This document shows positions 4,745 to 36,334 of a stretch of DNA of 37,315 nt, piece after piece. The notes beneath the pieces were generated by a model. That model was given only the letters and a program-made list of their open reading frames with translations. It made no database searches and was not told the DNA's origin. This DNA comes from Opitutales bacterium (GTDB lineage: Bacteria > Verrucomicrobiota > Verrucomicrobiia > Opitutales > T3Sed10-336): NCBI GenBank assembly GCA_007132315.1, contig SLOW01000286.1, positions 1 through 37,315 on the forward strand, in the 5' to 3' direction. The position numbers and the translations under genes were made by a program. Position 1 is the stretch's first letter. The number at the start of each line of letters is the position of its first letter.

Positions 4745-4844
4745 ATTGGAACCACGGCGATGAGAGATGACTTGAAAGGGAAGCGGGGGTACCCGGTCCG
4801 CCCGCTCCGGAGTCCGGAAATCAACCTCAAAAACGAATCACAAG

Positions 4845-6485
4845 ATGACAGAGGATAAAACGAAAACCCTGGTCGAGGAATGCGACGCGGTTTGGGCGGG
4901 GCTGTCCGACACCGGTCCGACGCGGGATCACAACGAAGACGCTCTTGGTGTGGTCTCCCTGGCCGACGTCAAGAAGCTTCGTGATGCCGGAGAGGGCGTG
5001 CTGTCGTGCCGGCCGCCCGGAGCCTTGTTCATGGTGAGCGACGGGGTTGGCGGAGCTTCCGGAGGTGAAATCGCCAGCCGCCTGGCGGTGCGGGCGGTGG
5101 CGGAGAATCTGGGAGTGCTCGTTGACGAGGAAAACGCGGAGCGCAATCCGGACAGAGCGCGGTTGCTCGAAAGATCCATCGTTCTGGCGAATGGCCGCGT
5201 GCGCCAGGAAGCTTCGGCCCGAGAGGGACTCAAAGGCATGGCGGCCACATTCTCGGGGCTGTGGCTGTTACCGGGGAAAGCCTATATCGGACAGGTGGGT
5301 GACAGCCGCATATACCGCTGGCGCGACGGCCGGTTGGAACAACTGACCCACGATCAATCCGAGGTGGGACGCCTGGTGCGTTCGGGCAAACTGACCGAAC
5401 GGGAGGCGCTCGATTTTCCACGCAAGAACGTTATCGATCAGGCCATCGGTTCCAAGCCGGAGGAGTTTGCGCCGCAGACGGACTGGTTCGAGACCTTGCC
5501 GGACGATGTTTTTCTCCTGTGCAGCGACGGGTTGGTGGAAAACTGGGTGACCGGCGACCTCGCCGAACAGATGGAAAACGCTCTCAGCGGGGGCGGATCC
5601 CTGGGGGAAGCCTGCCGCGGGATCGTGGAGGCGTCGAAGGAATCGTCCGGCAAAGACAATATAACGATGCTCGTCGTTCGCGTCGGTTCCGAGTCAGCCG
5701 GCGAGCCGAACAACGCGACGACAGGAGCCGGTCGCCGTCTTCCGTGGCGAGGGCTCGTGGTCGCCCTCGCGGCGGCATTGTTTACGGCGGCGCTCCTCTA
5801 TGCGATTGTCATGGCACCGGCCGAGGCACGCCACCGCGAGGAGTTGAGCGAGTTCGAGGCCCGGCTGGAAGCACAGCGGGAAGCCGTGGCGGGATGGCGG
5901 GTTACGGCGAGATCGCTGGAGGAGGATCTCGACGAGACCAGCGAGCATCACGAACGGCAACGGGAACGGGCGGCGGACTTGGAAGCGGAAATCAGTCTGT
6001 TGCGCCAGGTTAACGAGGAGATGGCTGAATCCCTGGATTCGCTTCGTGACGAGAAAGATCATCTGGAATCGGACCTCGGGGACCGGATCAGGGAAGCGCA
6101 CGCGCGCCTCGCCGAAAGCGAAGCGGAGTTGAACGAGGCGAGGGAGGTGAGCGACAGCCTCCGAATCAACCTGGAGACGATGGAACACGAAATCGAAGCG
6201 CTGGCGGGCCGAATCGAAGAGCTCGAGGAACGAAACGCTATCGACGAAACGTTGATTGAGGCGTTGCTGGCCGACGGCGAGAGCTCGGCGCTATGGGAGG
6301 AAGTCATCCGCGAGCGTCATGCGCCCCGGGTCGCTTCGGAGGACGCCGGTGCGGCGTGGGCTTCCCAGGACGAACGCCTCAACGAAATCGAATCGAGTTT
6401 CCCGGATGAGGAGGGCAGGGTGAGGGTTTTTCGTCGAATCATGGGACCGTCGGAATACGGAGGGGAAGACACCGGTCCCGATTGA
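4845..6485 (+). CDS. PP2C-family Ser/Thr phosphatase with one TM helix and a C-terminal coiled coil
   Basis: PP2C motifs are present: RDHNEDA, FMVSDGVGGASGGEIAS, GQVGDSRIY, LLCSDGL and DNITMLVVRV. A hydrophobic helix LVVALAAALFTAALLYAIVMAP lies at about nt 5750-5820. It is followed by ~200 aa of heptad-like Glu/Leu/Arg-rich sequence. Confidence 0.85.
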   Translation: MTEDKTKTLVEECDAVWAGLSDTGPTRDHNEDALGVVSLADVKKLRDAGEGVLSCRPPGALFMVSDGVGGASGGEIASRLAVRAVAENLGVLVDEENAERNPDRARLLERSIVLANGRVRQEASAREGLKGMAATFSGLWLLPGKAYIGQVGDSRIYRWRDGRLEQLTHDQSEVGRLVRSGKLTEREALDFPRKNVIDQAIGSKPEEFAPQTDWFETLPDDVFLLCSDGLVENWVTGDLAEQMENALSGGGSLGEACRGIVEASKESSGKDNITMLVVRVGSESAGEPNNATTGAGRRLPWRGLVVALAAALFTAALLYAIVMAPAEARHREELSEFEARLEAQREAVAGWRVTARSLEEDLDETSEHHERQRERAADLEAEISLLRQVNEEMAESLDSLRDEKDHLESDLGDRIREAHARLAESEAELNEAREVSDSLRINLETMEHEIEALAGRIEELEERNAIDETLIEALLADGESSALWEEVIRERHAPRVASEDAGAAWASQDERLNEIESSFPDEEGRVRVFRRIMGPSEYGGEDTGPD

Positions 6486-6636
6486 GGGAAAACCTGCTTG
6501 CCCTGTTTTCCGAGTAGGGAAAAACCTGAAAATTCCAACCCGTAAAGATTGATTTTGACCCGGAAAGTATTTCTGGGTAACAAGAGACTACTCTCGGTTC
6601 GTTTCCTCTTTGTATTACACAAATACCGTCCCCTTT

Positions 6637-7686
6637 ATGTCTTCAAATCGAATAAAAAAACTGTTCTTCCCGGTAATTGCGGGCGTGGGGGTTGTTTTAC
6701 TCACGGGTTGCGGGACCACAGCCGACTACAAAGCACTTCAACCCACCGCCGACGGTATGCCGATCCGGGAGGTGGAGATCACTTCCCCGCCCAACGGAGG
6801 TTCCGGGCCCGAAGGAGATCTCGCTTCGGTCTTGCCGTTGAATTCCGACGGCGTGTTCATCGACACGAGAATCAGTATGAGTCCCATCAACGACGAACTT
6901 GTGTTTTCCATGCACACCGGGCGTCGCTCCTACATGAATGTGTACACTTGGAGAAGCGGCAACGGTGAGGACGCGGGCGAGCCGGTGGATGTCACCCGGG
7001 ACATAGACCGGATCAACGTGGAGCCCACGTTCGATCCCCAGGGGGAATTCATCTACTACTCGTCGAACTACCCGGACGCGCGTTACTGGAAATTGTGGCG
7101 GTACGACCTGGTGGACGGCAGCAGGACTCAGATCAGTGACGATGGTTCCACGGCGCGGGTGGATACGAGCCCAACCCTTTCGCCGGACGGACGGCGAATC
7201 GCCTTCGCATCCTACGACCGCGAAGGTGGACAGTCTCGCATTATCGTTGCCGACTCCGACGGGGGCAACGCCGAGCGGAAGGCCACCGGCCACAGCCCGT
7301 CCTGGTCTCCCAACGGGCGTTTAATCGCCTATGTGTCCACCGATCCGGAATCGGAATTGGACCGCATCATGGTGTTGGATCTGGAGTCGGATACCACCCG
7401 CACGTTGACACGTGGAAGCTACCACGACCGCCATCCGGCTTGGACTCCCGACGGCGAGTTGATCGTGTTTTCCACCAATCGCGTGGTGGACGAGGACGGT
7501 TATAGACATTTTTCCATTTGGCAGATGGATGCTTCCGGCAGAAACGCTCGCCCGTTGACATTCAGCACCTACCACGACATGCGTCCGGTGGTGTCCTCGG
7601 ATGGAGACGCCATATTCTTCGTTTCCAATCGCGGCTCCACTGGCGGTGAGGTGCAGGATTGGCGGATTTGGAGAATTAACCGGTGA
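6637..7686 (+). CDS. TolB-like beta-propeller lipoprotein (PD40-type repeats)
   Basis: ATG 6637 gives MSSNRIKKLFFPVIAGVGVVLLTGC with the lipobox LLTG|C. The ORF track opens earlier, at TTG 6610. PD40-like blades repeat through the protein: SPDGRRIAFAS, SWSPNGRLIAYVS, PAWTPDGELIVFSTNR, VVSSDGDAIFFVSNR. Confidence 0.75.
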   Translation: MSSNRIKKLFFPVIAGVGVVLLTGCGTTADYKALQPTADGMPIREVEITSPPNGGSGPEGDLASVLPLNSDGVFIDTRISMSPINDELVFSMHTGRRSYMNVYTWRSGNGEDAGEPVDVTRDIDRINVEPTFDPQGEFIYYSSNYPDARYWKLWRYDLVDGSRTQISDDGSTARVDTSPTLSPDGRRIAFASYDREGGQSRIIVADSDGGNAERKATGHSPSWSPNGRLIAYVSTDPESELDRIMVLDLESDTTRTLTRGSYHDRHPAWTPDGELIVFSTNRVVDEDGYRHFSIWQMDASGRNARPLTFSTYHDMRPVVSSDGDAIFFVSNRGSTGGEVQDWRIWRINR

Positions 7687-7830
7687 TCGGCTTACGCCGG
7701 TTCGGCCGGCACGGCCGACGTGCCATCGCGTTGGGTTTCGGACGTTGTGGGCGATCCCGGAGCTCCGCTGTCGATTGGAACCCCGGGGTTTTTCAGTAAC
7801 CGCAACCACGACTCCCATTTGAGCGACGAC

Positions 7831-10800
7831 ATGAACGGATCTCCTGAAAGTGGCGACGAAGACGAACTGGAGGTGGGGGAGCTTCTTGGGAATTACCGGA
7901 TCGAGCGCCAGCTCGGTCACGGCGGCATGGGGGCGGTGTATCTCGCGCGGCATGACCGGCTCGGGAGAGAGGCGGCCTTGAAGGTTGTCGCTCGCAGTTT
8001 GACCGTCTCGGGAGAGGAGACGTTTCAAAGGAAGTTTCATGAGGAGGGCGGGCTGATGGCCTCGCTCGAACACGAGCATATCGTTCGTGTGTTCGATGCG
8101 GGAGAGTCTCATGGACGTTACTATTTGGCCATGGAGTACCTGGCCGGCGGGGATTTGGAGGAACGAAAGCGCACTTGCGGGGGCAGACTTCCGCCCGCCG
8201 AAGTCGCGGGTTACCTCGAGCAGCTCCTGGACGCCCTGATTTACGCTCACGGCAAGGATATTGTTCACCGCGACCTCAAGCCGGCGAACTTGCTTCTGAG
8301 TGAGAAGGGCACCATCAAGGTGTGCGACTTCGGCCTCGCGCGGGTTGTGGGGGACACGTTTGAACAGTCGGTCATCGAGCGCAGTCATCTCGCTTCCAGG
8401 GTCGGAGACGCCCGGACCCGGTTGGGGTCGGTGGGCACCGGAGACCGCTCGGGAACCCTTTACTACATGGCTCCCGAGGTATTGAAAGGCAATCCCGCCG
8501 ACGCGCGCAGCGACTTGTACGCGGTCGGGGTGATCGCCTATTACCTCCTGACCGGCGACAAGCCGATCGGCGCTTACAAACCGGCGAGTGCGATCGTCAA
8601 GGGTCTGGACCGGGGCTGGGACAAGTGGTTGAACAAAGTGCTGCAATCCGAACCCGACGACCGAACTCCCAGCGCGCGGGATGCCCTGCACGGGTTGTCG
8701 CGGCTTCGCCGCACACTGAGAGGCGTCAAGGCTCCCGCATCCCCCGCGTCGAATGCGTCGAAAGTCGCGGGTTGGTCGGCGGCGGCGGTCGCGACCATGG
8801 TGCTCACATACTTCGTTCTTCCGGAAGAAACCGGTGTGTTTCACGCCGAAATTGAGAATCCCGGATTACAGGACGACGAACGCTTGGAGATTGTGGTGGA
8901 CCGGCGCGAGGGCAGATCCACACCGCGGGTTTTGGGGAACTTGATATCTTTCGGGCCGGGCGAGAAATTGCGGAATCGCTTGAGAAGACCCTTCCCCGAA
9001 CGCGCGGTGTCATCCGCGGATGGCGGGTTGCGGAAGGAGGTACCCGCGGGGACGCGACGGGTGCTGTTGCGGCACCCGTATCATGTGCCTTTGTCCATCG
9101 ACTTGGAGGTGGATTCGCGCGGATTCGTCAGTGAGACTGTTGAACTGGTGCGGGGGACCGGACGCTTGGAGATGCGATTCGCAATGGCCGAATCCGATCT
9201 TGATCTGTTCAAGACGGAGGGCGGCCCGGTCATTCGCGTCAACGGACAGCCCATGGACGGCTGGTGGCGGGAGGAGTCTTTGTTCGTTGATTCCTTTCCG
9301 GCGGGCCGCGGTGAAGTCGAACTCGATCATCCGTTCTTCGAAGTGAAGAGCTTTACGTATGATATCGAAACCTATGAGGTCCAGGTCGCGGATGTGGAAC
9401 CCGCCCGCAGTACCGGATCCGTGAGTCTCGATCTCGACCCGTCCGACACCGGCTGGCGTGTCGAAGATGATCAGGAGGTTGTCGAAGAGGGAACCGGTCC
9501 CGGCCGGATCGACCTTCCGGCCGGTTCTTTTGTTTTTGTTGCAAGCCGCCGGGGCTTTGAGACGCCGCCGCGATCATTCGTTCTGGAGCGCGGGGACGAA
9601 TTGGCGTTTGAAGAGTCACTGTTTGGCGATATCGCCCTGGAATTCGTCAACGAACGCCTTTTGGGGGACGAAAATCTGAATGTCGCGCTCGAAGGATCGT
9701 CGATTGACTATGTTTGGGACGGTCCCACGGTGCGCCTTTCCGAGATACCTGCCGGAGAATGTGAACTGGTCTTGACGCATCCCAACTATGAGACGCGATC
9801 GCTCACCCTGAACGTGTCGGCCGACAGAGAAACGGATTATGCGTTGGAGTTATCCCGGGGCGAAGGGCGCGTCGAAGTGATCACCGTTCCCGAATCGTTG
9901 GAATGGGTTCTGGAGCATGCCGAGGGTGAAGCCGACCGAGTTGTGGGCGCCGGCGACTGGACGGGGAGCCTCCCCACCGGGGAATACGTTCTCGGCGGGG
10001 AACTCGACGGGTACGAGCCTGTGGAGAAAGAGTTAACGGTCAATTTGAACGAAGACCATCCGATCGCCCTGGAAACGGTCCGAAGCAAAGGCGCGATCGA
10101 CATCGCGATAACCAATCTCGAGGCCGGTCACGATGTTCAACAGGTTGATCTTCGCGTCGGTGGACGAGAGCGGGAATGGACTCGCCGGGATGGGTTGTTT
10201 CGAGTGAACGGAGTTGCCGCCGGTGAACACGAAATTTCGGCGGCTCACCCCAGGGTGGGGCAATCCACGGCGATGACCACGGTGGAGCACAACGAAACGG
10301 CATCGGTGGAACTGACCTTGGGTCAGGTAGACCCCGTGATTTTAGAAATGCCTTCATTCTCACTGGAACACGGAGCCTCTGTAGTTGCCGTGGCCTGGGC
10401 TCCGAACGGTGTCCGTTTGGCAACTTGCGGCGCGGATGGGGTGGTTCGCCTTTGGAATGTTGTGAATCGCGAGGAGATTACGCGGATTGACGGACATGTC
10501 GGAAGGGTCACGTCCGCGGCGTTTTCGCCCGATGGAGACAGATTGCTCACCGGGGGCGAAGATGGAACCGTTCGTGTGTGGGATGCCGCATCCGGAGAAT
10601 CGGTCCGCGATCTCGAATGGACCGGCGGCGGAGTGACCTCGGTGGCGTTTTCGCCCGGCACCGAAAACCTCGCGCTGGCGGGTGGCGAACGCGGGATTCT
10701 ACGCCTTTGGCGCGTAGCCGAAGGCGAGGTTCTGCTGGACCTGGAGGGACACGAGGGAGGGATCAACTCGATCGCGTTTTCTCCATGCGGCGAAAAGGCG

Positions 10801-11238
10801 CTCAGTGGCGCTCATGACAGGACGGCCCGGTTGTGGAGGCTGGCCACGGGAGAGGAATCGACTCCCACTTTTGAGCACCGGCGCCTTGGTGTCAACGCGG
10901 TGGCTTTCTCCGCTGATGGAGAGCGAATCCTGACCGGAGTGAATGACAACACCGCCCGGCTTTGGAGGGCGGAGACGCGCGAGGAATTGCGCGTATTTCT
11001 CGGGCACGAGCACAGCGTGCAGTCCGTGGATTTTTCGTCCGAGGGACAGCGGATACTCACAACCGGCGGTTGGGACGGAACCACACGGGTATGGAACGCT
11101 AATATGGGCTGGGAGTTGTATCGTATCAAAACAAACGGACGTTTTTTGTGCGCCGCCTTTTCGCCTGACAGACGGAGTATGGTCGTGACGGGCAACGCCG
11201 ACGGGGAGGCGGCGATTTGGCTCTTGGATGAGCGATGA
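7831..11238 (+). CDS. Hanks-type Ser/Thr protein kinase with TM helix, ~6 PEGA-like repeats and 7 WD40 repeats
   Basis: Kinase motifs are LGHGGMGAVY, AALKV, HRDLKPANLL, DFGLAR and YYMAPE. The TM helix is VAGWSAAAVATMVLTYFVLP (about nt 8764-8823). PEGA-like units repeat, for example GECELVLTHPNYETRSLTLNV and GEYVLGGELDGYEPVEKELTV. Seven WD40 units (..FSPDG..LLTGGEDGTVRVWD..) span about nt 10363-11235. The start is taken at ATG 7831; the ORF track opens at GTG 7720. Confidence 0.85.
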   Translation: MNGSPESGDEDELEVGELLGNYRIERQLGHGGMGAVYLARHDRLGREAALKVVARSLTVSGEETFQRKFHEEGGLMASLEHEHIVRVFDAGESHGRYYLAMEYLAGGDLEERKRTCGGRLPPAEVAGYLEQLLDALIYAHGKDIVHRDLKPANLLLSEKGTIKVCDFGLARVVGDTFEQSVIERSHLASRVGDARTRLGSVGTGDRSGTLYYMAPEVLKGNPADARSDLYAVGVIAYYLLTGDKPIGAYKPASAIVKGLDRGWDKWLNKVLQSEPDDRTPSARDALHGLSRLRRTLRGVKAPASPASNASKVAGWSAAAVATMVLTYFVLPEETGVFHAEIENPGLQDDERLEIVVDRREGRSTPRVLGNLISFGPGEKLRNRLRRPFPERAVSSADGGLRKEVPAGTRRVLLRHPYHVPLSIDLEVDSRGFVSETVELVRGTGRLEMRFAMAESDLDLFKTEGGPVIRVNGQPMDGWWREESLFVDSFPAGRGEVELDHPFFEVKSFTYDIETYEVQVADVEPARSTGSVSLDLDPSDTGWRVEDDQEVVEEGTGPGRIDLPAGSFVFVASRRGFETPPRSFVLERGDELAFEESLFGDIALEFVNERLLGDENLNVALEGSSIDYVWDGPTVRLSEIPAGECELVLTHPNYETRSLTLNVSADRETDYALELSRGEGRVEVITVPESLEWVLEHAEGEADRVVGAGDWTGSLPTGEYVLGGELDGYEPVEKELTVNLNEDHPIALETVRSKGAIDIAITNLEAGHDVQQVDLRVGGREREWTRRDGLFRVNGVAAGEHEISAAHPRVGQSTAMTTVEHNETASVELTLGQVDPVILEMPSFSLEHGASVVAVAWAPNGVRLATCGADGVVRLWNVVNREEITRIDGHVGRVTSAAFSPDGDRLLTGGEDGTVRVWDAASGESVRDLEWTGGGVTSVAFSPGTENLALAGGERGILRLWRVAEGEVLLDLEGHEGGINSIAFSPCGEKALSGAHDRTARLWRLATGEESTPTFEHRRLGVNAVAFSADGERILTGVNDNTARLWRAETREELRVFLGHEHSVQSVDFSSEGQRILTTGGWDGTTRVWNANMGWELYRIKTNGRFLCAAFSPDRRSMVVTGNADGEAAIWLLDER

Positions 11239-11246
11239 GTCGAAAC

Positions 11247-11277
11247 TTGACAATTTCGGATGTGAGCGTGTTAAGAA
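11247..11277 (+). promoter_or_regulatory. sigma70-like promoter candidate upstream of the small FHA gene
   Basis: TTGACA (11247-11252) is followed after 18-19 nt by TTAAGAAT (11271-11278). This is pattern only, and the promoter consensus for this lineage is unknown. Confidence 0.2.
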
Positions 11278-11426
11278 TGTCATACACAAGGTGCCGATAT
11301 CAATCCTCCGGGGATTGTTCGCATCGGAACAGCGTTTCGTGCTCTCGTGACGCTCCCGTCTGTTCGGGACGATTTTATGGATGCTTTCCTCAATAATAAC
11401 GACCACCCTCAACACAAGGCACTATC

Positions 11427-11798
11427 ATGGCAGCTATCATCGTCGGATCCGGTCCGATGGAAGGCGTTTACCTTCCTTTAAGGCATAAAACGGCCATTGT
11501 CGGTCGCGGCGAAGCCGTCGATCTTCAAATCGTTGAAGACAGTATATCCCGAAAACATCTGCGGATACAGTTTGACACGGACGAAGAGCGATATGTCGCG
11601 CTCGATATGGGCAGCCGCAACGGCTCCTGGATCAATGGCCAACCCTTGAAGAACGAAACATTCCTCCAACCCGACGACGAGATTGTGGTTGGAAACACCA
11701 AGTTGCTTTTTTCCGTAACCGTTCCCAAAGACAAAGCCAACGCGCTGGAGATTTACCAAAGCGCCGGTCAGCGCCGGTACAGCACGCGAAGGGTTTAG
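11427..11798 (+). CDS. small single-domain FHA protein
   Basis: 123 aa. FHA signature: IVGRGEAVDLQIVEDSISRKHLRIQFD..YVALDMGSRNGSWINGQPL..DDEIVVGNTKLLF. Confidence 0.85.
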   Translation: MAAIIVGSGPMEGVYLPLRHKTAIVGRGEAVDLQIVEDSISRKHLRIQFDTDEERYVALDMGSRNGSWINGQPLKNETFLQPDDEIVVGNTKLLFSVTVPKDKANALEIYQSAGQRRYSTRRV

Positions 11799-11969
11799 AA
11801 TGGAAAAATCGCGAACGTTGTTGCCAATAGGTCAAATTTTTCAAATGGATCCGGAAAAGGCAACTCACGCTTCCATCGCGAGTTTAGCACACAAGATGCG
11901 TGCACTGCTCTGGAGGCTGAGGCAACACCGTTAGCATCCCGACGGGATGCCAGGCACGAATTAAATACC

Positions 11970-14180
11970 ATGAAAACCATTCTCCCCACCCGCATATTCT
12001 TAGTCCTGTTTGCGTTTATGGTCGTTTTCGCCATGGCCGACAAAGCGCACACAGAGGATTCTTCCGGGGAGCCGAGTGTCATGGATCTGATCCTGGAGCG
12101 TGCCGTGGAGAATACTGCGGTCGAAGTCGATGGTGTTTGGGTGCCGCTGGTCATTGACGAGATCACCTGGAGAGAAGCGTCTCCGGAAGATTGGCAGGAA
12201 AATCTCCGGTCCAGGATCACATACGCCCAAAGACGTTACGAAGAGCTTGCGGAACGCACGGTCGCGCCCGCTCTGGAGAGGCAGTTCCGCGACGTGGCCC
12301 GCCGTTTTGAGGACGCCTGGGAAGCCCAGGACGTGGAGGAGCTCAACCGTCTCTTTCACACCTTTATCGAAGTGCCGACACCCGGATCCCTGCAGGCGAT
12401 CCAGGTGATCACCGATTCCAAACGACGCGGCGCGAACGCTATAATGGAAGCATTCCGGCGCCACGGGCGGGACGCCGAGGCGGATGCCGTTCGTGACGCG
12501 TTGGAGGCGGACAATCTGATCGCGATGGACGGAGCCATGGGGGATAATCTTCTGGCTGTCGGCCGGTTTCACGATCTCGATATCCTGTTTGTCAGCCTTG
12601 ATTCCGGCCCCGCTACGTTCATTGCCGATTTGGAAACGCCGGTTTTGCGCCGCGAATACGAGCTCGCCGAGGGCGAAGAGCGCCTGACGGCGGAACGAAT
12701 GGAACGTGTCGAATTGAGCTACCGCCGATACCGATTGCGGCAACACGAAAGCCGGGAATGGGAGTTCGCTTTCCGGGCCGGCGATTATTCCGTTGAGCGC
12801 GGTGAGTTTCGATCCGCGCTCGAATTGTCTGCCGAGCACGATGGACCGGAGAACGGTGTCGCCGGTGAAACCGCCTGGGAATTCCGCTTCGATGGACCGG
12901 TCTTGGCGACGGGATCCGGTATGGTGACCGATAAATTGAGGTTCGAACGTCCCGGGGAGTACGCGGTGCGCTTCTCGGGCGAAACCGATTGGCAGTCTCC
13001 GTTTTCCGTCTCGACACGGTTTATGCCGCCGGAGATTGTCACAACCTATCGCGGCGATGAGGGCACGAGGTTGACCGAGGAGCGACTCGAGTTTTCCGGT
13101 GAAGGAGACGATCCGTTCCGCGGGCAGACTGATTTGAGCCGGCACTGGCAATTGGAGGTCGAGGTGACCGACTCGGAAGTCGTGAACGGGCAATACCGGG
13201 CCGCCGCACGTCTCGCGGAAACCCGTGGTGACGGATCGGTTGATGCGGACAGTCTCTCCTGGGAAGTGCGATCTCCCGGAGGCGAGGTCCTGGGTGGCGA
13301 TTCCGGTGGAGAGACGCCGATCATGAGCTTTGAAGAGTCCGATTCTTATGCGTTTAAATTCACTGGTTCGACCGATTGGGATTCGCCGTTTGAGATTACG
13401 GAAGACTTGCCGAATCCGGAAATCGTCCCGGTTTATGACGACGAAGAGGGCAGGACGCTGTCCGAGGAAAGGACGGTTTTCTCCGTTCCGGAAGATGAGC
13501 GGCCGTCGGGCCAGGTGGATATCGTGCGCGATTGGGATTTTCAGGCGGAAGTGGTGGAGCACGGCATTAGCAACGGGCGGTTCGGAGTCATTGTGCGTTT
13601 GAACGAACGGAACCGGGAAGGTTCAGGCCTTCGAGGTCATACCCTGGCGTGGGACGCTTATAACCCGGATGGCAGTCTCTTCCAGTCCGGGCAGGGAACC
13701 GAAACCAGCCTCCTGCCCTTTGACGAAGGCGGCGAGTACTCCATCGAGTTTCTTGGCGAAACCGATTGGCGTTTTCCGTTCCGGATTGCGTATTCTCTGC
13801 GGCATCCCAATATAACCCCGTTCTACTCCGGCGACGAAGGCGGGCGCCTGGTGGCGGAAGAGATGTCTTATGGCGGCGGCGACTCCTCGCCCGAGGATCA
13901 GAGGCGCGAATGGGACTTCGACCTGCAATTGCTCAATGAGCGCATCGTCAACGACGAGTATCAGGCAACCGTGCGCCTGACCGAACGCCGACGGGGGCGC
14001 GGCTTTCAAACCACCGGCTGGCGCGTTCTCGGCCGGGGCGACACCGTTTATGATGAAGGAGATTCCGAACAGGCGAATCTGACTTTCACCGACCCGGGCG
14101 AATACCACATCGAATTGTCCGGTATCACCGACTGGGGCTCCCCATTCACGGTCAGAAGTGTTTTTAATATACAGTTTTAG
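11970..14180 (+). CDS. secreted protein with helical N-domain and four tandem ~129-aa repeats (unknown family)
   Basis: Signal peptide MKTILPTRIFLVLFAFMVVFAMA. Four repeats each end in a G-x-TDW-x-(S/F)PF motif: FSGETDWQSPFSV, FTGSTDWDSPFEI, FLGETDWRFPFRI, LSGITDWGSPFTV. Confidence 0.8.
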   Translation: MKTILPTRIFLVLFAFMVVFAMADKAHTEDSSGEPSVMDLILERAVENTAVEVDGVWVPLVIDEITWREASPEDWQENLRSRITYAQRRYEELAERTVAPALERQFRDVARRFEDAWEAQDVEELNRLFHTFIEVPTPGSLQAIQVITDSKRRGANAIMEAFRRHGRDAEADAVRDALEADNLIAMDGAMGDNLLAVGRFHDLDILFVSLDSGPATFIADLETPVLRREYELAEGEERLTAERMERVELSYRRYRLRQHESREWEFAFRAGDYSVERGEFRSALELSAEHDGPENGVAGETAWEFRFDGPVLATGSGMVTDKLRFERPGEYAVRFSGETDWQSPFSVSTRFMPPEIVTTYRGDEGTRLTEERLEFSGEGDDPFRGQTDLSRHWQLEVEVTDSEVVNGQYRAAARLAETRGDGSVDADSLSWEVRSPGGEVLGGDSGGETPIMSFEESDSYAFKFTGSTDWDSPFEITEDLPNPEIVPVYDDEEGRTLSEERTVFSVPEDERPSGQVDIVRDWDFQAEVVEHGISNGRFGVIVRLNERNREGSGLRGHTLAWDAYNPDGSLFQSGQGTETSLLPFDEGGEYSIEFLGETDWRFPFRIAYSLRHPNITPFYSGDEGGRLVAEEMSYGGGDSSPEDQRREWDFDLQLLNERIVNDEYQATVRLTERRRGRGFQTTGWRVLGRGDTVYDEGDSEQANLTFTDPGEYHIELSGITDWGSPFTVRSVFNIQF
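12639..14177 (+). repeat. four tandem protein-level repeats (period ~129 aa, ~387 nt) inside the 736-aa ORF
   Basis: Repeat boundaries fall at about aa 224, 352, 481 and 611. Shared landmarks are P-(E/N)-I-(V/T)-x-x-Y-x-(G/D)-(D/E)-EG-x-x-L-x-(E/A)-E, W-(E/D)-F and GE/GS-TDW-x-(S/F)PF. The repeats have diverged at the DNA level. Confidence 0.75.
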
Positions 14181-30424: not shown

Positions 30425-30539
30425 AATTAATCAATTCTAGTTTTACAATCAGGTGCACCTGTGAAACTGATGCCGTCCCCGCGGCCTATTAACTTTGCCG
30501 GATGTCGAGGCTGTCAATCCTTAACCGCTCATAATCAGG

Positions 30540-30985
30540 AGGGGGTCGGACGAAGTGTCGCAGACAAAGGATAACCACAACATGTTATCCTCGATTGATT
30601 TTATGTCCAGTATTGCTAAGCTGACTGGAGCGGAATTATCCGATTATGAAATCGACGGGGAAAAATCCGGGGTCTCATTCTTGGTTCTGATGGAGCGGTA
30701 AATCCTCATGACTGCTATTCAATCACCAGGATAGATCAATTCCAGGGGTTGATCAGTGGAGATGGAAAATGGAAATTGATGCTGCCGCACGAGTATCTCA
30801 GTGTGGTTTGGGGTGGCAGGGACGGAGAGCCCGGTACAAACCGTTAGGTTATGATCGACACAGCGCCATTCGATATGGTGCATGACCCCTATGAAAAAAT
30901 AAATGTCATCGATGAGTATCCGGATATCGCTGAACAAATGCTGCGGTATGCAGAAGAACATAGGTCGATCTTTTTCGATGAATAA
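30540..30985 (+). pseudogene. sulfatase C-terminal remnant (frameshift plus in-frame stops)
   Basis: One frame reads SSIDFMSSIAKLTGAELSDYEIDGEKSGVSFLVLMER*. After a frameshift it reads GDGKWKLMLPHEYLSVVWGGRDGEPGTNR*VMIDTAPFDMVHDPYEKINVIDEYPDIAEQMLRYAEEHRSIFFDE*. These match the typical sulfatase C-terminal blocks D..PT...L.G...P....DG.S and L(Y/F)D...DP.E..N. Confidence 0.6.
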
Positions 30986-31278
30986 TACATTGCGTCCCCA
31001 CGAGTTCAAGTCGACTGTTTTAGAAATGAATGCGACAATGGTGCAATCCGACCCACAAAGAGGTTCGTTGGTGCCGAACGCACGTGTCGTGACCTGCCCT
31101 TGAGGCCGCCCTATGTCACAATATGGGGGACCTTCCCGAACCGGGAACTACCCACGAATTTTTCTGAGGAGGCAAAATTTTTAAGGATAAGGACTAACCC
31201 GACGGATTGGGTCGTTATCATTCATAGCGGGGGAACGAGATTGGGTTGGGTTCGCATAGAGTGAACTCGTGAAGGAGT

Positions 31279-31893
31279 TTACATCTTCGGCATGATCCGG
31301 GCCATGTCGTCGTGAGGGCGGGCGATAACGTGGGCGGCGATCAGTTTGCCGAGTGTGCTGACCGCCTGCGCGCCGGCGTCGATCGCGGCTTTGACCGCCG
31401 CCACGTCTCCCTCGATGATGATGGTGACGTAGGCCGCCCCGATCTTTTCTTTGCCGATGAGGCGGACATCGGCGGTTTTGAGCATGGTGTCGGTGGCTTC
31501 GAGGATGGCGGCGAGGCCCTGGGTTTCAAGGATGCCGATTGCTTTGTTGTTTGTTTTCATAGGTGAAGGATCGGGGCGAATTTCGTCGCGTCCCCCGTAA
31601 AGAGCGTTGATGGTCACTGGGCCTGAGTTTAATTGATCGATCCCGGGGGCGAGAGAGGGGAGGAGCGTCGCGACGGGTTCGACCCCCATCCGTTGAGCCT
31701 CGCTGACGCCGACCGCAATGGCTGAATTCAGATCGGCCGGTCCGCTTCCTTGTAATCGGATGAGCACACGTTCGTCCCCGATCGGCTCGAGGCCGAGCAA
31801 GGTGACGTCCGCGGCTTTAAGCATCAACTCGGTCACCATCATAGTGATGGAGAAGAATGGCACTTCGACGAGCGCTATGCTGGCTGTTTTCAC
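31279..31893 (-). CDS. tandem BMC-domain shell protein (BMC-T-like; divergent domain 1, canonical domain 2)
   Basis: Domain 2 (nt 31294-31545) reads AIGILETQGLAAILEATDTMLKTADVRLIGKEKIGAAYVTIIIEGDVAAVKAAIDAGAQAVSTLGKLIAAHVIARPHDD, a close match to the PduA/EutM/CcmK pattern. Domain 1 (nt 31630-31884) reads SIALVEVPFFSITMMVTELMLKAADVTLLGLEPIGDERVLIRLQG. The GTG start overlaps the aldolase stop (TAGTG). The protein has no Cys. Confidence 0.85.
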   Translation of the reverse strand: MKTASIALVEVPFFSITMMVTELMLKAADVTLLGLEPIGDERVLIRLQGSGPADLNSAIAVGVSEAQRMGVEPVATLLPSLAPGIDQLNSGPVTINALYGGRDEIRPDPSPMKTNNKAIGILETQGLAAILEATDTMLKTADVRLIGKEKIGAAYVTIIIEGDVAAVKAAIDAGAQAVSTLGKLIAAHVIARPHDDMARIMPKM

Positions 31894-32915
31894 TACTTGG
31901 GAAGGCGGCTATGGACAACATCGCGAACGATTGATTCGACACGGGCGCGCCATGCGTCAGAAAATTTCGGGTCTCCTTCAGCGGAGTGGACGGTGCAATG
32001 TTTCGCGGCTTCGGGAAATCCGCATTCTGTTAAGACGCAGGCGATGCGGGAGCGAACAACGTCCATCAATTCCAATTCCGCCGGGGCGAGCGGGAACCGG
32101 GCTCGCCCGGTGTCGAACCCCCTGAGCTGATATCCGGCCCGAAAACCTTCGGGGAAATTCGGGGCGTTGACCATCAAGGAAAAGAGATCGAGCAGTTTAA
32201 ACTGCACGTGCCTGGCTGAGTCCCAGTTTCCGCCGACGGTTTCGTGATAAATTTTCATGATGACCTCCGGGACGATTCCCGCGCTGGAGAGCGTGCCGCC
32301 GTCGCCGCCCATGAAGAGGGAGGCGCAGAGGAGTTCCTCCCACCCGATGAGCACTGAAAAATCGGGACGTTGCGGTTTGATCTCATGCAGGACTTGTTGA
32401 AAGCGAGGCATGTCCCGCGAGGTGTCCTTCGTACCGATGATTCGCGGGCAATCGAGCGCCAGGCGTTTGAGGACGGGAACGCTGATCTCGTTGGCGAAGG
32501 CAGGAATATTGTAGATGACAATATCAATCGGAGATTTCGCGGCCAGTTCTCGGAAATAGGTTTCGATGCTCTCCTGGGTCAGTTTGTAGTAATAAGGACC
32601 GGTGATGGATACCGCTCGACATCCGAGGCCGGCGCAGTAGCGGCACATTTCTAGAACGAGGTCGACGTTTGGTTCCGCCGCCCCTGCAAGGATCGGCCGG
32701 CCTCCCGCTTCTTCGGTGACGATTTTGAGGACCCGCTTGCGTTCCTCGTAAGACAGGCGAATGAACTCGCCCATGCTGCCGTTCGGATAGAATCCGGTAA
32801 CCCCTTTGTCGCCAAGCCAACGGATGATGCGGCGAAGTTCCTCTTCGTTGATCCGTCCCTGGTCATCGTAGGGGACGATGTTCGGTACAAAGATTCCTTG
32901 TAATTGACCGGGCAT
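31893..32915 (-). CDS. DHDPS/N-acetylneuraminate-lyase-family class I aldolase with C-terminal extension
   Basis: Family blocks are GFYPNGSMGEF (variant of GTTGE), IVIYNIP and IIGTKDTS (Schiff-base Lys). At 340 aa it runs ~40 aa beyond the usual family length. Confidence 0.8.
   Translation of the reverse strand: MPGQLQGIFVPNIVPYDDQGRINEEELRRIIRWLGDKGVTGFYPNGSMGEFIRLSYEERKRVLKIVTEEAGGRPILAGAAEPNVDLVLEMCRYCAGLGCRAVSITGPYYYKLTQESIETYFRELAAKSPIDIVIYNIPAFANEISVPVLKRLALDCPRIIGTKDTSRDMPRFQQVLHEIKPQRPDFSVLIGWEELLCASLFMGGDGGTLSSAGIVPEVIMKIYHETVGGNWDSARHVQFKLLDLFSLMVNAPNFPEGFRAGYQLRGFDTGRARFPLAPAELELMDVVRSRIACVLTECGFPEAAKHCTVHSAEGDPKFSDAWRARVESIVRDVVHSRLPK
31896..31955 (-). other. putative BMC encapsulation peptide (C-terminal amphipathic helix of the aldolase)
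   Basis: AWRARVESIVRDVVHSRLPK has hydrophobic residues at i, i+4, i+7, i+8, i+11, i+12 and i+16. It is preceded by a linker, ECGFPEAAKHCTVHSAEGDPKFSD. The pattern resembles known encapsulation peptides such as the PduD/PduP N-termini. Confidence 0.5.
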
Positions 32916-32947: not shown

Positions 32948-33790
32948 TCAGGATGTTGGGTCCAAAGAGTAAATACGCCGGGCGTTCCGAGCATAGATTT
33001 TATCCCGGTTCTCCGCGCTCTCCTCCGCGAATATTTCATGAGTGACCTTGACCCATTGGTTCAGTGAGGCGGTCAAATTGCAAACAGGCCAGTCGCCTCC
33101 CCAGACGAGGCGGTCCCAGCCAAAACAATCCACCGCATGTTCGACCCACGGGCGGATCGTTTCGGTTGTAACCGCATCCGGAGGAGAATATGCAGGCAGC
33201 CCCGAGACTTTACAGATAACATTGGGACGGCTCGAGATATCCCGAAGCGAATCGTGCCATGGATCGCGTGCTTCCCCTGCGATGTCGGGCACGCCGCAAT
33301 GGTCGAGAATGAACGAAACATTCGGGCAGGAATCGACCAATTCCGCGGCGATTGTAAGCTGTGCGGGAAGCACGCAAAGGTCGAAGGTTAGGCCGCGCGC
33401 GGCGAGCCGGGCGATGTTTTGCCGGAAACTCGGTAAACGGGAAAGCTCATCCGGCTGGGTGTGGAGAACCCGTCGGATTCCTTTCACCGCAGGGTGATGG
33501 ATTGTATCCAGGTGCGTTTCGAAATCGTCATTTTCCGGACGGGCGGAGGCGATCACCCCGAGTAGCTTGTTGGCCGGATTCTCGGCCATTCGAGAAAAGA
33601 ACCGGGCCTCATCAATCGACTGGGCCCGGTCGACGTCGACCTCCATAAATAAGGTTCCCTCGATATCGAGGCCGGCGGAGGCGTTGCGGTATTCGTCCAG
33701 ACGGAAATTACCTTGCAGAGGAGACAGATTTTCCGTCCAAGGATACTGGAAACGACCCGGGTAGAGGAGATGTTGGTGAGTATCGATCAT
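32948..33790 (-). CDS. amidohydrolase-2 (COG3618-type) sugar lactonase-like protein
   Basis: MIDTHQHLL carries the HxH metal motif at the N-terminus. Other blocks are ILDHCG and VWGGDWP. This matches the pattern of the family that includes L-fucono-1,5-lactonase. Confidence 0.7.
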   Translation of the reverse strand: MIDTHQHLLYPGRFQYPWTENLSPLQGNFRLDEYRNASAGLDIEGTLFMEVDVDRAQSIDEARFFSRMAENPANKLLGVIASARPENDDFETHLDTIHHPAVKGIRRVLHTQPDELSRLPSFRQNIARLAARGLTFDLCVLPAQLTIAAELVDSCPNVSFILDHCGVPDIAGEARDPWHDSLRDISSRPNVICKVSGLPAYSPPDAVTTETIRPWVEHAVDCFGWDRLVWGGDWPVCNLTASLNQWVKVTHEIFAEESAENRDKIYARNARRIYSLDPTS

Positions 33791-33792
33791 AG

Positions 33793-34131
33793 TCAGTCAG
33801 AGTGAAAAACTTCTTCCATTTCCGCCCACCATTCGCCAGGTAAGCGATCGGGGAGGGGGGTCTGGCATGGCTTGCATACTTCCCACCATTCCAGGGTTTT
33901 GGGATCGGCCGCCATCTTGGCCGCGTCTGCCTCGAAGTCGTTCCCAGTGTATTCAAAATAACTAAACAGGTAGTAATTTCCGTCGGGAAGTTTTCGCAAA
34001 TAGATCGAGTAGTTGCGGATGTTGCACTTGTCGATCATCTGCAGGACCTCCGGCCAGACCGCGGCGTGGAGACGTTTGTATTCTTCGATTTTTTCCGGTT
34101 TAAGACCGATTACACTTCCGTAACGCTTCAT
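33793..34131 (-). CDS. rhaM: L-rhamnose mutarotase family protein
   Basis: 112 aa. MKRYGSVIGLKPEKIEEYKRLHAAVWPEVL..IRNYSIYL..LFSYFEY..WW..C is co-linear with the YiiL/RhaM pattern. Confidence 0.8.
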   Translation of the reverse strand: MKRYGSVIGLKPEKIEEYKRLHAAVWPEVLQMIDKCNIRNYSIYLRKLPDGNYYLFSYFEYTGNDFEADAAKMAADPKTLEWWEVCKPCQTPLPDRLPGEWWAEMEEVFHSD

Positions 34132-34146
34132 CGTAATATCCAGGGT

Positions 34147-34674
34147 TCAGGTTTCTTTGTCAGGTACTTCAGCTTCAAAGGCCGCCGGGTTGCGATACTT
34201 GACGGTCTGAAGGTGTTCACAATATAGGGCCAGATCGCCTTCATTCTTAAAGATCTCGTAGCTGGCGCGATAGAGTCCCATTTCCTTATATTTGGGAGAT
34301 TTCTCCAAGTCGGTTTTGATGGTGTAGACCGTGTCGCCGATGAAGACAGGTTTGATAAATCGAAGCTTGTCGTAGCCATAACTGAAGGCGTTCACGCAAT
34401 TGGTGGCGACCAGGCCGAGCCCGACACTGAACACCATCGCTCCGGCGATCAGTCGCCTGCCGAAGAGGCCATCTTCGCGGGCGAAGATTTCGTCGGCCAC
34501 ATACGGATGCATATCGAGGACCAAGGCGTTGAATTGCATCGATTCCCCCTCACCCAGCGTGCGGCGTATTGAACGAATCCTTCGGCCAATCTGGATATCC
34601 TCGTAATACCAGTCTTCGGCGTTCCAAACAGGAATCTCCTTATGTTTGACTGGATCCGGATTGGGATTCTTCAC
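34147..34674 (-). CDS. MaoC-like hot-dog protein lacking the catalytic His (probable non-catalytic partner)
   Basis: The hydratase-2 motif position reads LDMHPYV, so Asp is kept and His is replaced by Val. It shares the block [20 protein letters not shown] with the second MaoC. The GTG start overlaps the CoA-transferase stop (GTGA). Confidence 0.7.
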
Positions 34675-35837
34675 AAGTGAAACTCTTTCTCTACGGATTG
34701 GTTGTGTTGTCCGATGGAGGGTGCGCCTCGGGTGGATTTATAAATGTTGCCGTCGATCCGAATGGGACAGCGAAGCGTTTTCAACGGCGTTCCACCAGAA
34801 CACAAGATTTCCTGTTCCATGTCAAGCGCGCGATAACCCTCGGTTGCCCGCAATACTTTCCAATTCATGACCTCCGCGCACCAAATGTCGGCCGGTTCGA
34901 GGACCGCCAGCCATTCGGTAGTTGTTTTGCTCTTTAGATGATTGCGCAGGATCCCCTTGATCTCATCACGGCGGGTGAACCAACTCTTGGGTTCGGTAAA
35001 CGATTCCAGCGGGGGGCAATCGAGCAGTTTCCCCAAATGAGTCACTGCGCCCATGGCCAAGGCGAGATGCCCGTCGGCGGTGGCGTAGATGCCATAAGGC
35101 GCTCCGAGATAGGCGTGGCCGTTATTCACCGCGCTCCGGCGGGCGGGTTGTTCCCCATCGTTCAAATGGGTGGTGATGACTTCGAACTGCAGGTCGAGGA
35201 TCGACTCCAGCAGGCTCACCTCCACGCGTGCTCCTCTTCCGGATATGCCGCGTCGAACCAGACAGGCGAGGATTCCCTCGACCAGGTGTGCGCTGGCGGC
35301 AAGGTCGGCGACGGCGAGACCCACCGGGACGGGCGGATCGTCCATGTTGCCTGAAAGCCAGCAAAGTCCCGATATCGACTGGGCGAGGAGATCCTGGCCG
35401 GGTTTGGCCGCCCAGGGGCCGTCCGGTCCATAACCGGTCACGGTGCCGAAGATCAGGCGCGGATTGATGCGCGCCACGGTATCGTAATCAAGGCCGAGCT
35501 TTCGCATGACTCCAGGGCGAAAGTTTTCGATCAGGACATCGGCACTTTCAATCAATTTCCGCACTTTCGCCAAATCATCGGCGTCTTTGAGGTCGGCTGC
35601 GAAACCTTCTTTATTGCGATTGATGGAATGAAATAGGGTGCTATCTCCTTCGACCCCCAGATTCGAGATATAGAGCTGGCGGCAGATGTCCCCGCCTCGG
35701 GGCCGCTCGATTTTAATCACCCGCGCACCTAGGTCGGCCAGTCGCATCGCGGCGGCGGGCCCGGCCAGAAATTGGGAAAAATCGAGAACGAGCAGGCCGT
35801 GCAGCGGTTTGTCGGAGGAGTCTGAAGCATTTACCAT
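34671..35837 (-). CDS. family III (CaiB/BaiF) CoA-transferase
   Basis: Blocks: [78 protein letters not shown]. Confidence 0.85.
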
Positions 35838-35866
35838 AACGAGGGAGCGAGTGAGATTGTGTCGGT

Positions 35867-36334
35867 TCAGGTTTGAAGTTCGGGGCTGGACTCCGGTTCG
35901 CGCCGGTTGACCAGCAGGAGGTGTTCACAGGCGAGGACGATTTCATCTCTCTGATTGAAGACCTCGACCAGTTCGCTGACCACTCCTTGCGCGGGTCGCT
36001 TATGCGGACGCTTCTCCTTGACCGCCACCCGGACTCGGATGGTATCACCAATAAAGACCGGCTTGATAAAGCGAAGGCGATCGTAACCGTAGGAAAAGGC
36101 TTCGGCGTTGATCGCACCGGCTGTCATTCCGATGGCGACGCTGAATATCAGTGTGCCGTGGGCGATTCTCTGGTGGAACTCCTGGGTCTTGCACCATTCC
36201 GCATCCATGTGATGCGGATAAAAGTCACCGGTCTGTCCGGCGTGCATGACGATGTCGGTTTCGGTAATGGTTCGTCCGCCGGTTTGGCGGACATGTCCGA
36301 TTTCGTACTCTTCAAAATAGATATTTGTGAACAT
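35867..36334 (-). CDS. MaoC-like (R)-specific enoyl-CoA hydratase/dehydratase (catalytic Asp/His present)
   Basis: The hydratase-2 motif reads [12 protein letters not shown]. It shares the block [20 protein letters not shown] with the first MaoC. Confidence 0.75.

Follow-up and report, generated by a model that had tools for sequence, protein, structure and literature searches.

Planctomycetes and Verrucomicrobia microcompartments (PVM), which have been reported solely in these two phyla, are held to be central to the turnover of fucose- and rhamnose-rich polysaccharides in the sea and in soil, and are thought to confine the intermediate L-lactaldehyde (PMC8857213; PMC4207490). Those described so far have a single entry enzyme, a class II aldolase that acts on phosphorylated ketoses, and field studies of Verrucomicrobiota have dealt with the class II aldolase route only. 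The stretch analysed here is the 37,315-nucleotide contig SLOW01000286.1 of an Opitutales bacterium (assembly GCA_007132315.1; the whole stretch is called the window below), which encodes a class I aldolase of the DHDPS/NAL family (dihydrodipicolinate synthase and N-acetylneuraminate lyase) with a C-terminal tail, followed at once by the gene for a bacterial microcompartment (BMC) shell protein. We consider it likely that the last ~20 residues of this aldolase are a C-terminal encapsulation peptide that packages the enzyme into a PVM-type microcompartment. The logic of such tags, the organelle and the enzyme family are all known, and it is their combination that appears to be undescribed and to be widespread in metagenomes. 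The initial annotation of this DNA, made from the letters alone, knew of no such cargo, and no description of a DHDPS-type class I aldolase as microcompartment cargo was found in the literature searched.

The class II aldolase of the PVM resembles the aldolase of the window in being a lactaldehyde-releasing aldolase, as the latter is predicted to be, in carrying a C-terminal peptide of ~17 aa after a linker, and in belonging to the same host phyla; its linkers are also enriched in cysteine (5.5%, Table 2 of the class II aldolase paper). Fold and chemistry are unrelated, as the known enzyme is a class II metal enzyme whereas the one described here is a class I Schiff-base TIM barrel, and the known enzyme cleaves a ketose 1-phosphate to dihydroxyacetone phosphate whereas the latter would cleave a non-phosphorylated sugar acid to pyruvate. 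The linker of the class II enzyme is 23-81 aa long as opposed to 8-25 aa in the family described here, the tails being compared by description, and the window aldolase differs further in being encoded in a satellite with a tandem shell tile of its own.

A class I aldolase is already known as the packaged signature enzyme of SPU microcompartments (PMC11585597; Sutter 2021 Suppl. Data 2), but it is of the DeoC type (PF01791) and differs from ours in family, in its sugar-phosphate substrate, in its N-terminal peptide and in the type of organelle. In the texts searched, a class I aldolase of pfam00701 is mentioned in the vicinity of shell genes just once, for the Gemmatimonadetes MUF2 loci (Sutter 2021 Suppl. 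Data 2), where a neighbouring protein combines a middle domain rich in Cys with an encapsulation peptide at its C-terminus; the MUF2 aldolase itself is not described as peptide-bearing, and both the phylum and the locus type differ. DHDPS-family enzymes are not among the peptide-bearing proteins collected in a review that states that no others are known (PMC4594438).

The aldolase, the parts of its C-terminal extension and the shell gene lie in the window as follows.

31893 to 32915, minus strand: DHDPS/NAL-family class I aldolase gene, an open reading frame (ORF) of 340 aa with its stop codon at 31893-31895 (Pfam PF00701)
32025 to 32915, minus strand: catalytic TIM barrel and C-terminal helical domain, aa 1-297 (AlphaFold2 and Foldseek)
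31995 to 32042, minus strand: conserved Cys-containing segment IACVLTECGFPEAAKHC, aa 292-307 (alignment of 58 homologues)
31941 to 31994, minus strand: hypervariable linker TVHSAEGDPKFSDAWRAR, aa 308-325 (low AlphaFold2 confidence, pLDDT, and variability in the family)
31905 to 31958, minus strand: predicted terminal helix, aa 320-337 (AlphaFold2)
31914 to 31940, minus strand: encapsulation-peptide-like core VESIVRDVV, aa 326-334 (core pattern and tail profile)
31279 to 31893, minus strand: tandem-domain BMC shell protein of 204 aa, an unpermuted BMC-T (two PF00936 domains, E 1e-35)

When the ORFs of the window of at least 90 aa were scanned against Pfam, the PF00701 profile matched aa 5-288 of the aldolase (profile positions 2-283 of 289, E 1e-50, 172.6 bits), and by this profile together with the TIM-barrel fold the enzyme belongs to the PF00701 class. 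Its best solved homologue by sequence is the 2-keto-3-deoxygluconate (KDG) aldolase 4uxd (E 2e-35), and the solved relatives (4uxd, DHDPS, N-acetylneuraminate lyases and YagE), which are 274-310 aa long, align in sequence with aa ~5-290. In a Foldseek comparison with the PDB, ~290-300 columns were aligned with DHDPS, NAL and KDG-aldolase structures at a TM-score of ~0.88 per target. Two residues, K163 in the motif GTKD and Y135 in the motif YNIP, are unchanged across 58 homologues, with K163 aligned to the KD motif of 4uxd, 1o5k and 2vc6; in the DHDPS/NAL family these are the Schiff-base lysine (K163) and the catalytic tyrosine (Y135). Because both are invariant among the homologues, the aldolase looks active.

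Past the fold the protein runs on for ~45-50 residues which have no counterpart in any solved DHDPS/NAL structure, so that the extension proposed in the initial annotation is borne out by the structure alignments. Its end, ECGFPEAAKHCTVHSAEGDPKFSDAWRARVESIVRDVVHSRLPK, is encoded by positions 31896 to 32027 of the minus strand and closes the 340-aa ORF. In the AlphaFold2 model, a monomer predicted with 58 homologues as input (mean pLDDT 88.8), the last helix of the fold spans aa 278-297; after it come a short helix (301-306), residues with a pLDDT below 50 (310-315) and a terminal helix (320-337). The segment that joins the fold to the linker is conserved, with A292, C293, L295, G299 and C307 invariant in the 58 homologues, C298 kept in at least 90% of them, and a family form of IACVLxECGFxEAAxxC; a metal or redox role for the triad C293/C298/C307 is possible. 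The variable linker begins after C307 and is 18 aa long in the window aldolase (family range 8-25 aa, median 14). The 159 family linkers compared comprise 155 different sequences, in which A, R, P, D, S, T and G are abundant. The description of the whole as a poorly structured linker holds for TVHSAEGDPKFSDAWRAR, which has a low pLDDT and is hypervariable, and fails for the part in front of it, ECGFPEAAKHC, which is conserved.

Beyond the linker the tails share a core of the consensus V/I-E/D-x-I-V-R-x-V-M/L, hydrophobic at i, i+3, i+4, i+7 and i+8. The strict form of this pattern is found near the C-terminus in 176 of 188 full-length homologues and slight variants of it in 5 more. The best 120 homologues (74-84% identity, 331-367 aa) all have the tail, and the pattern lies within the last 30 residues of 119 of these 120, as against 3 occurrences in their bodies. 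In the window aldolase the core ends 6 residues before the C-terminus (aa 326-334 of 340), and the 11-mer around it, RVESIVRDVVH, has a hydrophobic moment of 0.67, the family mean for the best 11-mer being 0.71 and the corresponding values for the PduP and PduD peptides being 0.61 and 0.82.

Likeness to known encapsulation peptides was assessed with a profile hidden Markov model (HMM) made from 145 distinct 18-residue aldolase tails. Among 17 Eut proteins of E. coli K-12 the top match was aa 4-17 of EutC, KQIEEIVRSVMASM (18.4 bits, E 4e-7), and the second was aa 3-18 of EutE, these N-termini being the known targeting peptides of the two enzymes. In 890 six-frame segments from the eut region of E. 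coli and the choline-utilisation (cut) region of Klebsiella, EutC again led by far (E 2e-5), and among the weak matches were the cut aldehyde dehydrogenase (C-terminus), PduL (N-terminus) and EutE. A hydrophobic spacing like that of BMC encapsulation peptides had been claimed for the tail from the outset, and a tail profile that ranks the EutC peptide first agrees with that claim. The EutC peptide (MDQKQIEEIVRSVMASMGQ, of ethanolamine ammonia-lyase) has a core, IEEIVRSVMASM, that is nearly identical to the aldolase family consensus VEaIVRxVMxxL, and it is sufficient for targeting. Three Cys stand in the extension that adjoins the E. coli EutC peptide, as they do in the aldolase. The EutC case is unlike ours in that the peptide is N-terminal, the enzyme unrelated and the organelle the Eut compartment of Proteobacteria and Firmicutes.

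In the 1.1 Mb that flank related aldolases, high scores among the 2,903 ORFs were obtained for aldolases only, with one notable exception. This is a Zn-type alcohol dehydrogenase of 410 aa (locus L021, 3657-4889, plus strand) which begins with MNRDQISQIVRQVLKDTGV, continues with a P/A/S linker of ~30 aa and enters the alcohol dehydrogenase domain at aa 69, having a 45-aa extension of its own. The operon in question also holds a tailed aldolase and a tandem BMC gene, and the dehydrogenase, the sole instance among the loci examined, is a further enzyme that bears an encapsulation-peptide-like tag.

The operational criteria published for encapsulation peptides (Kinney 2012; Aussignargues 2015; PMC4594438) are a terminal position, a length of ~17 aa, an amphipathic helix, a variable linker, and occurrence on shell-associated homologues only. 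In the aldolase the peptide is terminal and short (~15-20 aa), the amphipathic alpha-helix is predicted by way of the core (the moment of the whole 18-mer is just 0.17), the linker is poorly conserved, with the conserved Cys segment of aa 292-307 between it and the fold, and at the level of the locus the tail is carried by homologues that are associated with a BMC gene and is missing from those that are not. The tail fits these criteria.

The locus-level result comes from a protein search that gave 1,663 relatives of the aldolase at E below 1e-20, from which loci with 10-kb flanks were fetched, 10 from species-representative genomes and 80 from metagenomes. They contain 81 distinct aldolases of 58-83% identity, of which 77 are tailed and informative. 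A tandem-BMC gene lies at most 400 nt downstream in 63 of the 81 and within 2.5 kb in 1 more, the other 17 consisting of 13 tailed aldolases that have no shell gene, 3 at a contig end and 1 tail-less aldolase that has no shell gene. The initial annotation had called for a check on whether orthologues in genomes that lack BMC genes also lack the tail; run at the level of the locus, it came out in favour of packaging, as 64 of the 77 informative tailed homologues adjoin a shell gene compared with none of 4 tail-less relatives, no BMC gene being found downstream of any of these 4, whose context could be read. A tailed clade at 54% identity has a BMC gene of 212 aa adjoining it, and several other diverged clades also have the Cys segment, the linker and the helix. 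The distant tailed aldolase P0147 (35% identity), which has a Cys-rich linker, showed no shell gene on a contig of just 4 kb.

A search seeded with the tail-less relative of locus L086 gave members without a tail that are nested in the family (P0391, P0393, P0409, P0416 and P0442, 298-308 aa). These stop right after the last helix of the fold and have neither the terminal helix nor the Cys segment, which is found solely together with the tail. Their catalytic domains are 80-87% identical to those of tailed members, therefore the tail is dispensable for the fold and was lost or gained among close relatives. The nearest tail-less representatives of 50% clusters (P0124, P0125 and P0128-P0130) are more distant, at 39-47% identity. 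The tail-less P0442 (L099/L100, 10001-12405) is encoded in an operon of fucosidase, SSF transporter, lactonase and aldolase with a PF00171 aldehyde dehydrogenase as convergent neighbour, and judging by its genes this locus is a natural cytosolic counterpart of the tailed module, with another solution to the aldehyde problem. A search of a plasmid collection gave no homologue of the aldolase, and matches to the shell protein only from Klebsiella and Acetoanaerobium.

The genes upstream of the aldolase bear on the reaction it may catalyse.

32948 to 33790, minus strand: Amidohydro_2 protein, a putative sugar-acid lactonase (PF04909, E 1e-46)
33793 to 34131, minus strand: RhaM-family mutarotase (PF05336, E 4e-33)
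34147 to 36334, minus strand: block of a MaoC-like hydratase, a family III CoA-transferase and a further MaoC-like hydratase (PF01575, PF02515, PF01575)

In most related loci the Amidohydro_2 gene immediately precedes that of the aldolase, the RhaM mutarotase gene recurs in related loci, and in the window a gene for a solute-binding protein also lies upstream on the same strand. Related operons contain GH29 and GH95 fucosidases, RhaT or SSF transporters, the RhaM mutarotase, SDR or GFO dehydrogenases, the Amidohydro_2 lactonase and MR_MLE- or UxaA-type dehydratases. This gene set points to a non-phosphorylative 6-deoxyhexose route ending in pyruvate and lactaldehyde, the route that the initial annotation had put forward and that the operon context fits. 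The keto-deoxy acid formed from fuconate or rhamnonate gives pyruvate and L-lactaldehyde on cleavage, and by operon context the substrate of the aldolase would be L-2-keto-3-deoxyfuconate or L-2-keto-3-deoxyrhamnonate, with the same two products. The MaoC, CoA-transferase and MaoC block is also present beside the aldolase in L001, L025, L034, L039, L060, L065, L096 and L104, often with an SBP_bac_1 protein.

The L-2-keto-3-deoxyfuconate aldolases FucH of Veillonella ratti and Cj0481 of Campylobacter jejuni are, to our knowledge, without a tail. They belong to the same DHDPS/NAL family, and their pathway has the same operon logic of a dehydrogenase, an Amidohydro_2 lactonase, a UxaA-type dehydratase and the aldolase (PMC12566272, citing Watanabe 2020). 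In the fucose locus of C. jejuni the DHDPS-type L-2-keto-3-deoxyfuconate aldolase is encoded together with UxaA, an SDR, an amidohydrolase and an aldehyde dehydrogenase (PMC12566272, citing Watanabe 2020). The related operons parallel this non-phosphorylative locus in their gene set, and differ from it, when compared by description, in that the C. jejuni locus has the aldehyde dehydrogenase in the place of the shell gene (PMC12566272).

That a shell gene follows the aldolase immediately, as had been noticed in the initial annotation, is confirmed by a GTG start that overlaps the aldolase stop codon by 1 nt (TAGTG), and the shell gene is translationally coupled to the aldolase. Its product is a single chain with a pair of PF00936 domains arranged in the canonical order, as in an unpermuted tandem BMC-T, and its best match in the PDB is 6ner, a 'BMC-H tandem fusion'. 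Of the two domains, the second has the canonical sequence and is strongly conserved (GKEKIGAAYVT...GDVAAVKAA...HVIARPH), and the first has diverged and is acidic in the region of its pore loop, which reads EPIGDER in the window. A search with the shell protein gave 3,001 relatives, and in all the contexts inspected the gene of the homologue, of 200-219 aa, came immediately behind that of a DHDPS-family protein. The public call of the protein is 186 aa (P0271); since the alignment with homologues of 200-213 aa starts at residue ~3 of the 204-aa ORF and the N-terminal residues E10, P12, F13 and S15 are conserved, the 204-aa form with the GTG start is the likely product. Downstream of the shell gene, positions 30425 to 31278 (~850 nt) contain no convincing ORF, and scans for Rfam families and tRNAs gave nothing there or anywhere else in the window. 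A metagenomic protein of 353 aa, P0049, ends in ...VEAIVRNVVARL-IARPHESLSRM..., like an aldolase tail fused to a BMC C-terminus, and this is probably a deletion or an assembly artefact.

The main locus of a PVM is recognised by BMC-H together with a BMC-P triplet and by a class II aldolase (PF00596) together with aldehyde dehydrogenase and PduL (Erbilgin 2014; Axen 2014; Sutter 2021), the 2021 catalogue giving two BMC-H and three BMC-P for PVM loci and showing the organisation of the satellites as an image only (Sutter 2021, PMC8217296). The window, with a single tandem PF00936 gene and no PF03319, has neither set and, lacking the genes that define one, does not count as a main PVM locus. A satellite is recognised by PF00936 or PF03319 but not both, enzymes being optional (Axen 2014; Sutter 2021), and this describes the window and all related loci, which have the one tandem PF00936 gene plus enzymes. 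Since no pentamer or second shell gene lies in the flanks, the aldolase and shell gene are taken as a satellite-type module, and the shell tree of the 2021 catalogue lists tandem proteins of 204-211 aa, 'T_pvm', as PVM satellites (Sutter 2021, PMC8217296). The main microcompartment locus would be elsewhere in the same genome.

By analogy the closest functional parallel to the aldolase and its tile is the 'EUT module', a satellite of EutABC and an EutL-type BMC-T, which likewise has a peptide-bearing signature enzyme and a dedicated trimeric tile away from the main locus. The EUT module extends HO and SPU microcompartments and has been proposed to add an alternative substrate (Sutter 2021, PMC8217296). 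It differs from our module in its enzyme, in its host organelle, and in having a permuted EutL tile as opposed to the unpermuted tandem found here.

If the tail is an encapsulation peptide, then L-fucose or L-rhamnose would be oxidised in the cytosol by way of the mutarotase, dehydrogenase, lactonase and dehydratase to a 2-keto-3-deoxy-6-deoxyhexonate. The aldolase, docked to shell proteins by an amphipathic helix on a flexible linker, would split this compound inside the shell into pyruvate and L-lactaldehyde, and the core enzymes of the organelle, encoded elsewhere in the genome, would process the toxic lactaldehyde. The co-translated tandem-BMC protein would be a dedicated shell tile, acting either as the docking partner of the aldolase or as a pore for the sugar acid. 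Aldolase and tile would thus form a two-gene satellite module that gives an existing organelle a second entry route.

A number of observations weigh against packaging into a PVM-type microcompartment. The 13 tailed homologues with no shell gene downstream weaken the linkage argument, although they would fit targeting to a distant main locus. BMC-H, BMC-P, aldehyde dehydrogenase and PduL were all missing from the Pfam scan of the ORFs of the 37-kb window, the 10-kb flanks of the aldolase in ~100 related loci contain neither a pentamer gene nor a further PF00936 gene, and the BMC-P seeds used (EutN and the Klebsiella cut pentamer) had no match in the 1.1 Mb of flanks; a full shell in the same genome is an assumption, because there are no other shell genes in the window or the flanks. 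The ~18-aa amphipathic helix of the initial annotation stands only in part, as a helix is predicted at 320-337 and its core is amphipathic, but the whole 18-mer as it was drawn has a hydrophobic moment of 0.17, no higher than shuffled sequences give, and the helix of the window is among the less amphipathic ones of the family. The conserved Cys-rich segment ahead of the linker is not what the textbook 'poorly conserved linker' would lead one to expect, and the helix may pack into an oligomer interface, since AlphaFold2 was run on the monomer. Two metagenome-assembled genomes (MAGs) with the aldolase are labelled as lying outside the expected phyla, as Hydrogenedentota and Dongiaceae.

The absence of any other shell gene within 10 kb in those ~100 loci could also mean that the aldolase and the tandem-BMC protein are a self-contained pair, with the tail bound to the tile, the tile forming sheets, tubes or pentamer-less cages that would scaffold or surround the aldolase, and no classical PVM organelle involved. 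The translational coupling of the two genes would suit this, as would the closest solved relative of the tile, since 6ner is a synthetic tandem BMC-H fusion that self-assembles into cages. We nevertheless regard a self-contained pair as unlikely: 13 tailed aldolases have no neighbouring tile, lactaldehyde made in a cage without an aldehyde dehydrogenase would bring no obvious benefit, the tile has a divergent domain 1, as accessory tiles typically do, and the catalogue treats the 204-211-aa T_pvm proteins as satellites of genomes that have main PVM loci. A bolder form of the idea, to which we give just as little weight, is a portable and self-sufficient two-gene kit in which the tile alone builds a pentamer-less cage or sheet, the peptide loads the aldolase and the Cys triad perhaps acts as a gate. 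Such a kit would be the smallest natural metabolosome-like system, able to work with or without a classical organelle and movable between sugar operons.

It is similarly improbable that the extension is a structural or regulatory element of the subfamily, for example a metal or redox site at the Cys triad with a helix packed across the tetramer, and that the shell gene adjoins it for reasons other than encapsulation. The conservation of C293, C298 and C307 ahead of the linker speaks for such an element, the terminal helix has a pLDDT of ~80 and could contact the body of the enzyme, and the 18-mer first drawn is not significantly amphipathic. It is at odds with a tail that is lost in relatives with catalytic domains 80-87% identical, and is thus dispensable for fold and catalysis, with a linker that is hypervariable in both length and sequence, with a tail profile that specifically picks validated encapsulation peptides, and with a tail whose presence tracks the shell gene. 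Chance likeness, or an artefact of the sequence through read-through or a frameshift, is highly improbable as the origin of the tail, although amphipathic helices of small size are widespread and 14 residues underlie the comparison with EutC. The tail is conserved in >170 independent metagenomic and genomic sequences at a fixed position behind a variable linker, the pattern is found 3 times in bodies against 119 times in tails in 120 proteins, and the artefact reading was rejected on this family-wide conservation.

Were the aldolase packaged into a PVM-type microcompartment as proposed, many Verrucomicrobiota would also feed a non-phosphorylative pathway into the organelle, through an unrelated, tagged class I aldolase that brings its own tile, and the catalogue of metabolosomes would gain a new signature enzyme. 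The missing lactaldehyde dehydrogenase of these operons would be explained. The family would in addition lend itself to a natural experiment on the purpose of the organelle, in which tail-less aldolases with a cytosolic aldehyde dehydrogenase are set against tailed ones with a shell tile, and for engineering it would provide a compact C-terminal tag and a matching tile.

The named homologues and MAGs are mostly from Verrucomicrobiota lineages (Verrucomicrobia, Opitutales, Chthoniobacterales, and also Kiritimatiellia). As regards the two labels that depart from this, an identical aldolase and BMC sequence occurs in the 'Hydrogenedentota' MAG and in an Opitutales MAG (L006/L007), and the 'Dongiaceae' MAG contains a tailed aldolase (L013). 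Mis-binning of contigs is likely in both cases, therefore caution is needed with the taxonomic outliers.

Elsewhere in the window, positions 3137 to 14180 encode FHA-domain proteins, a PP2C phosphatase, a PD40 beta-propeller protein and a Ser/Thr kinase of 1,172 aa with WD40 repeats, a cluster that appears to be unrelated to the aldolase.

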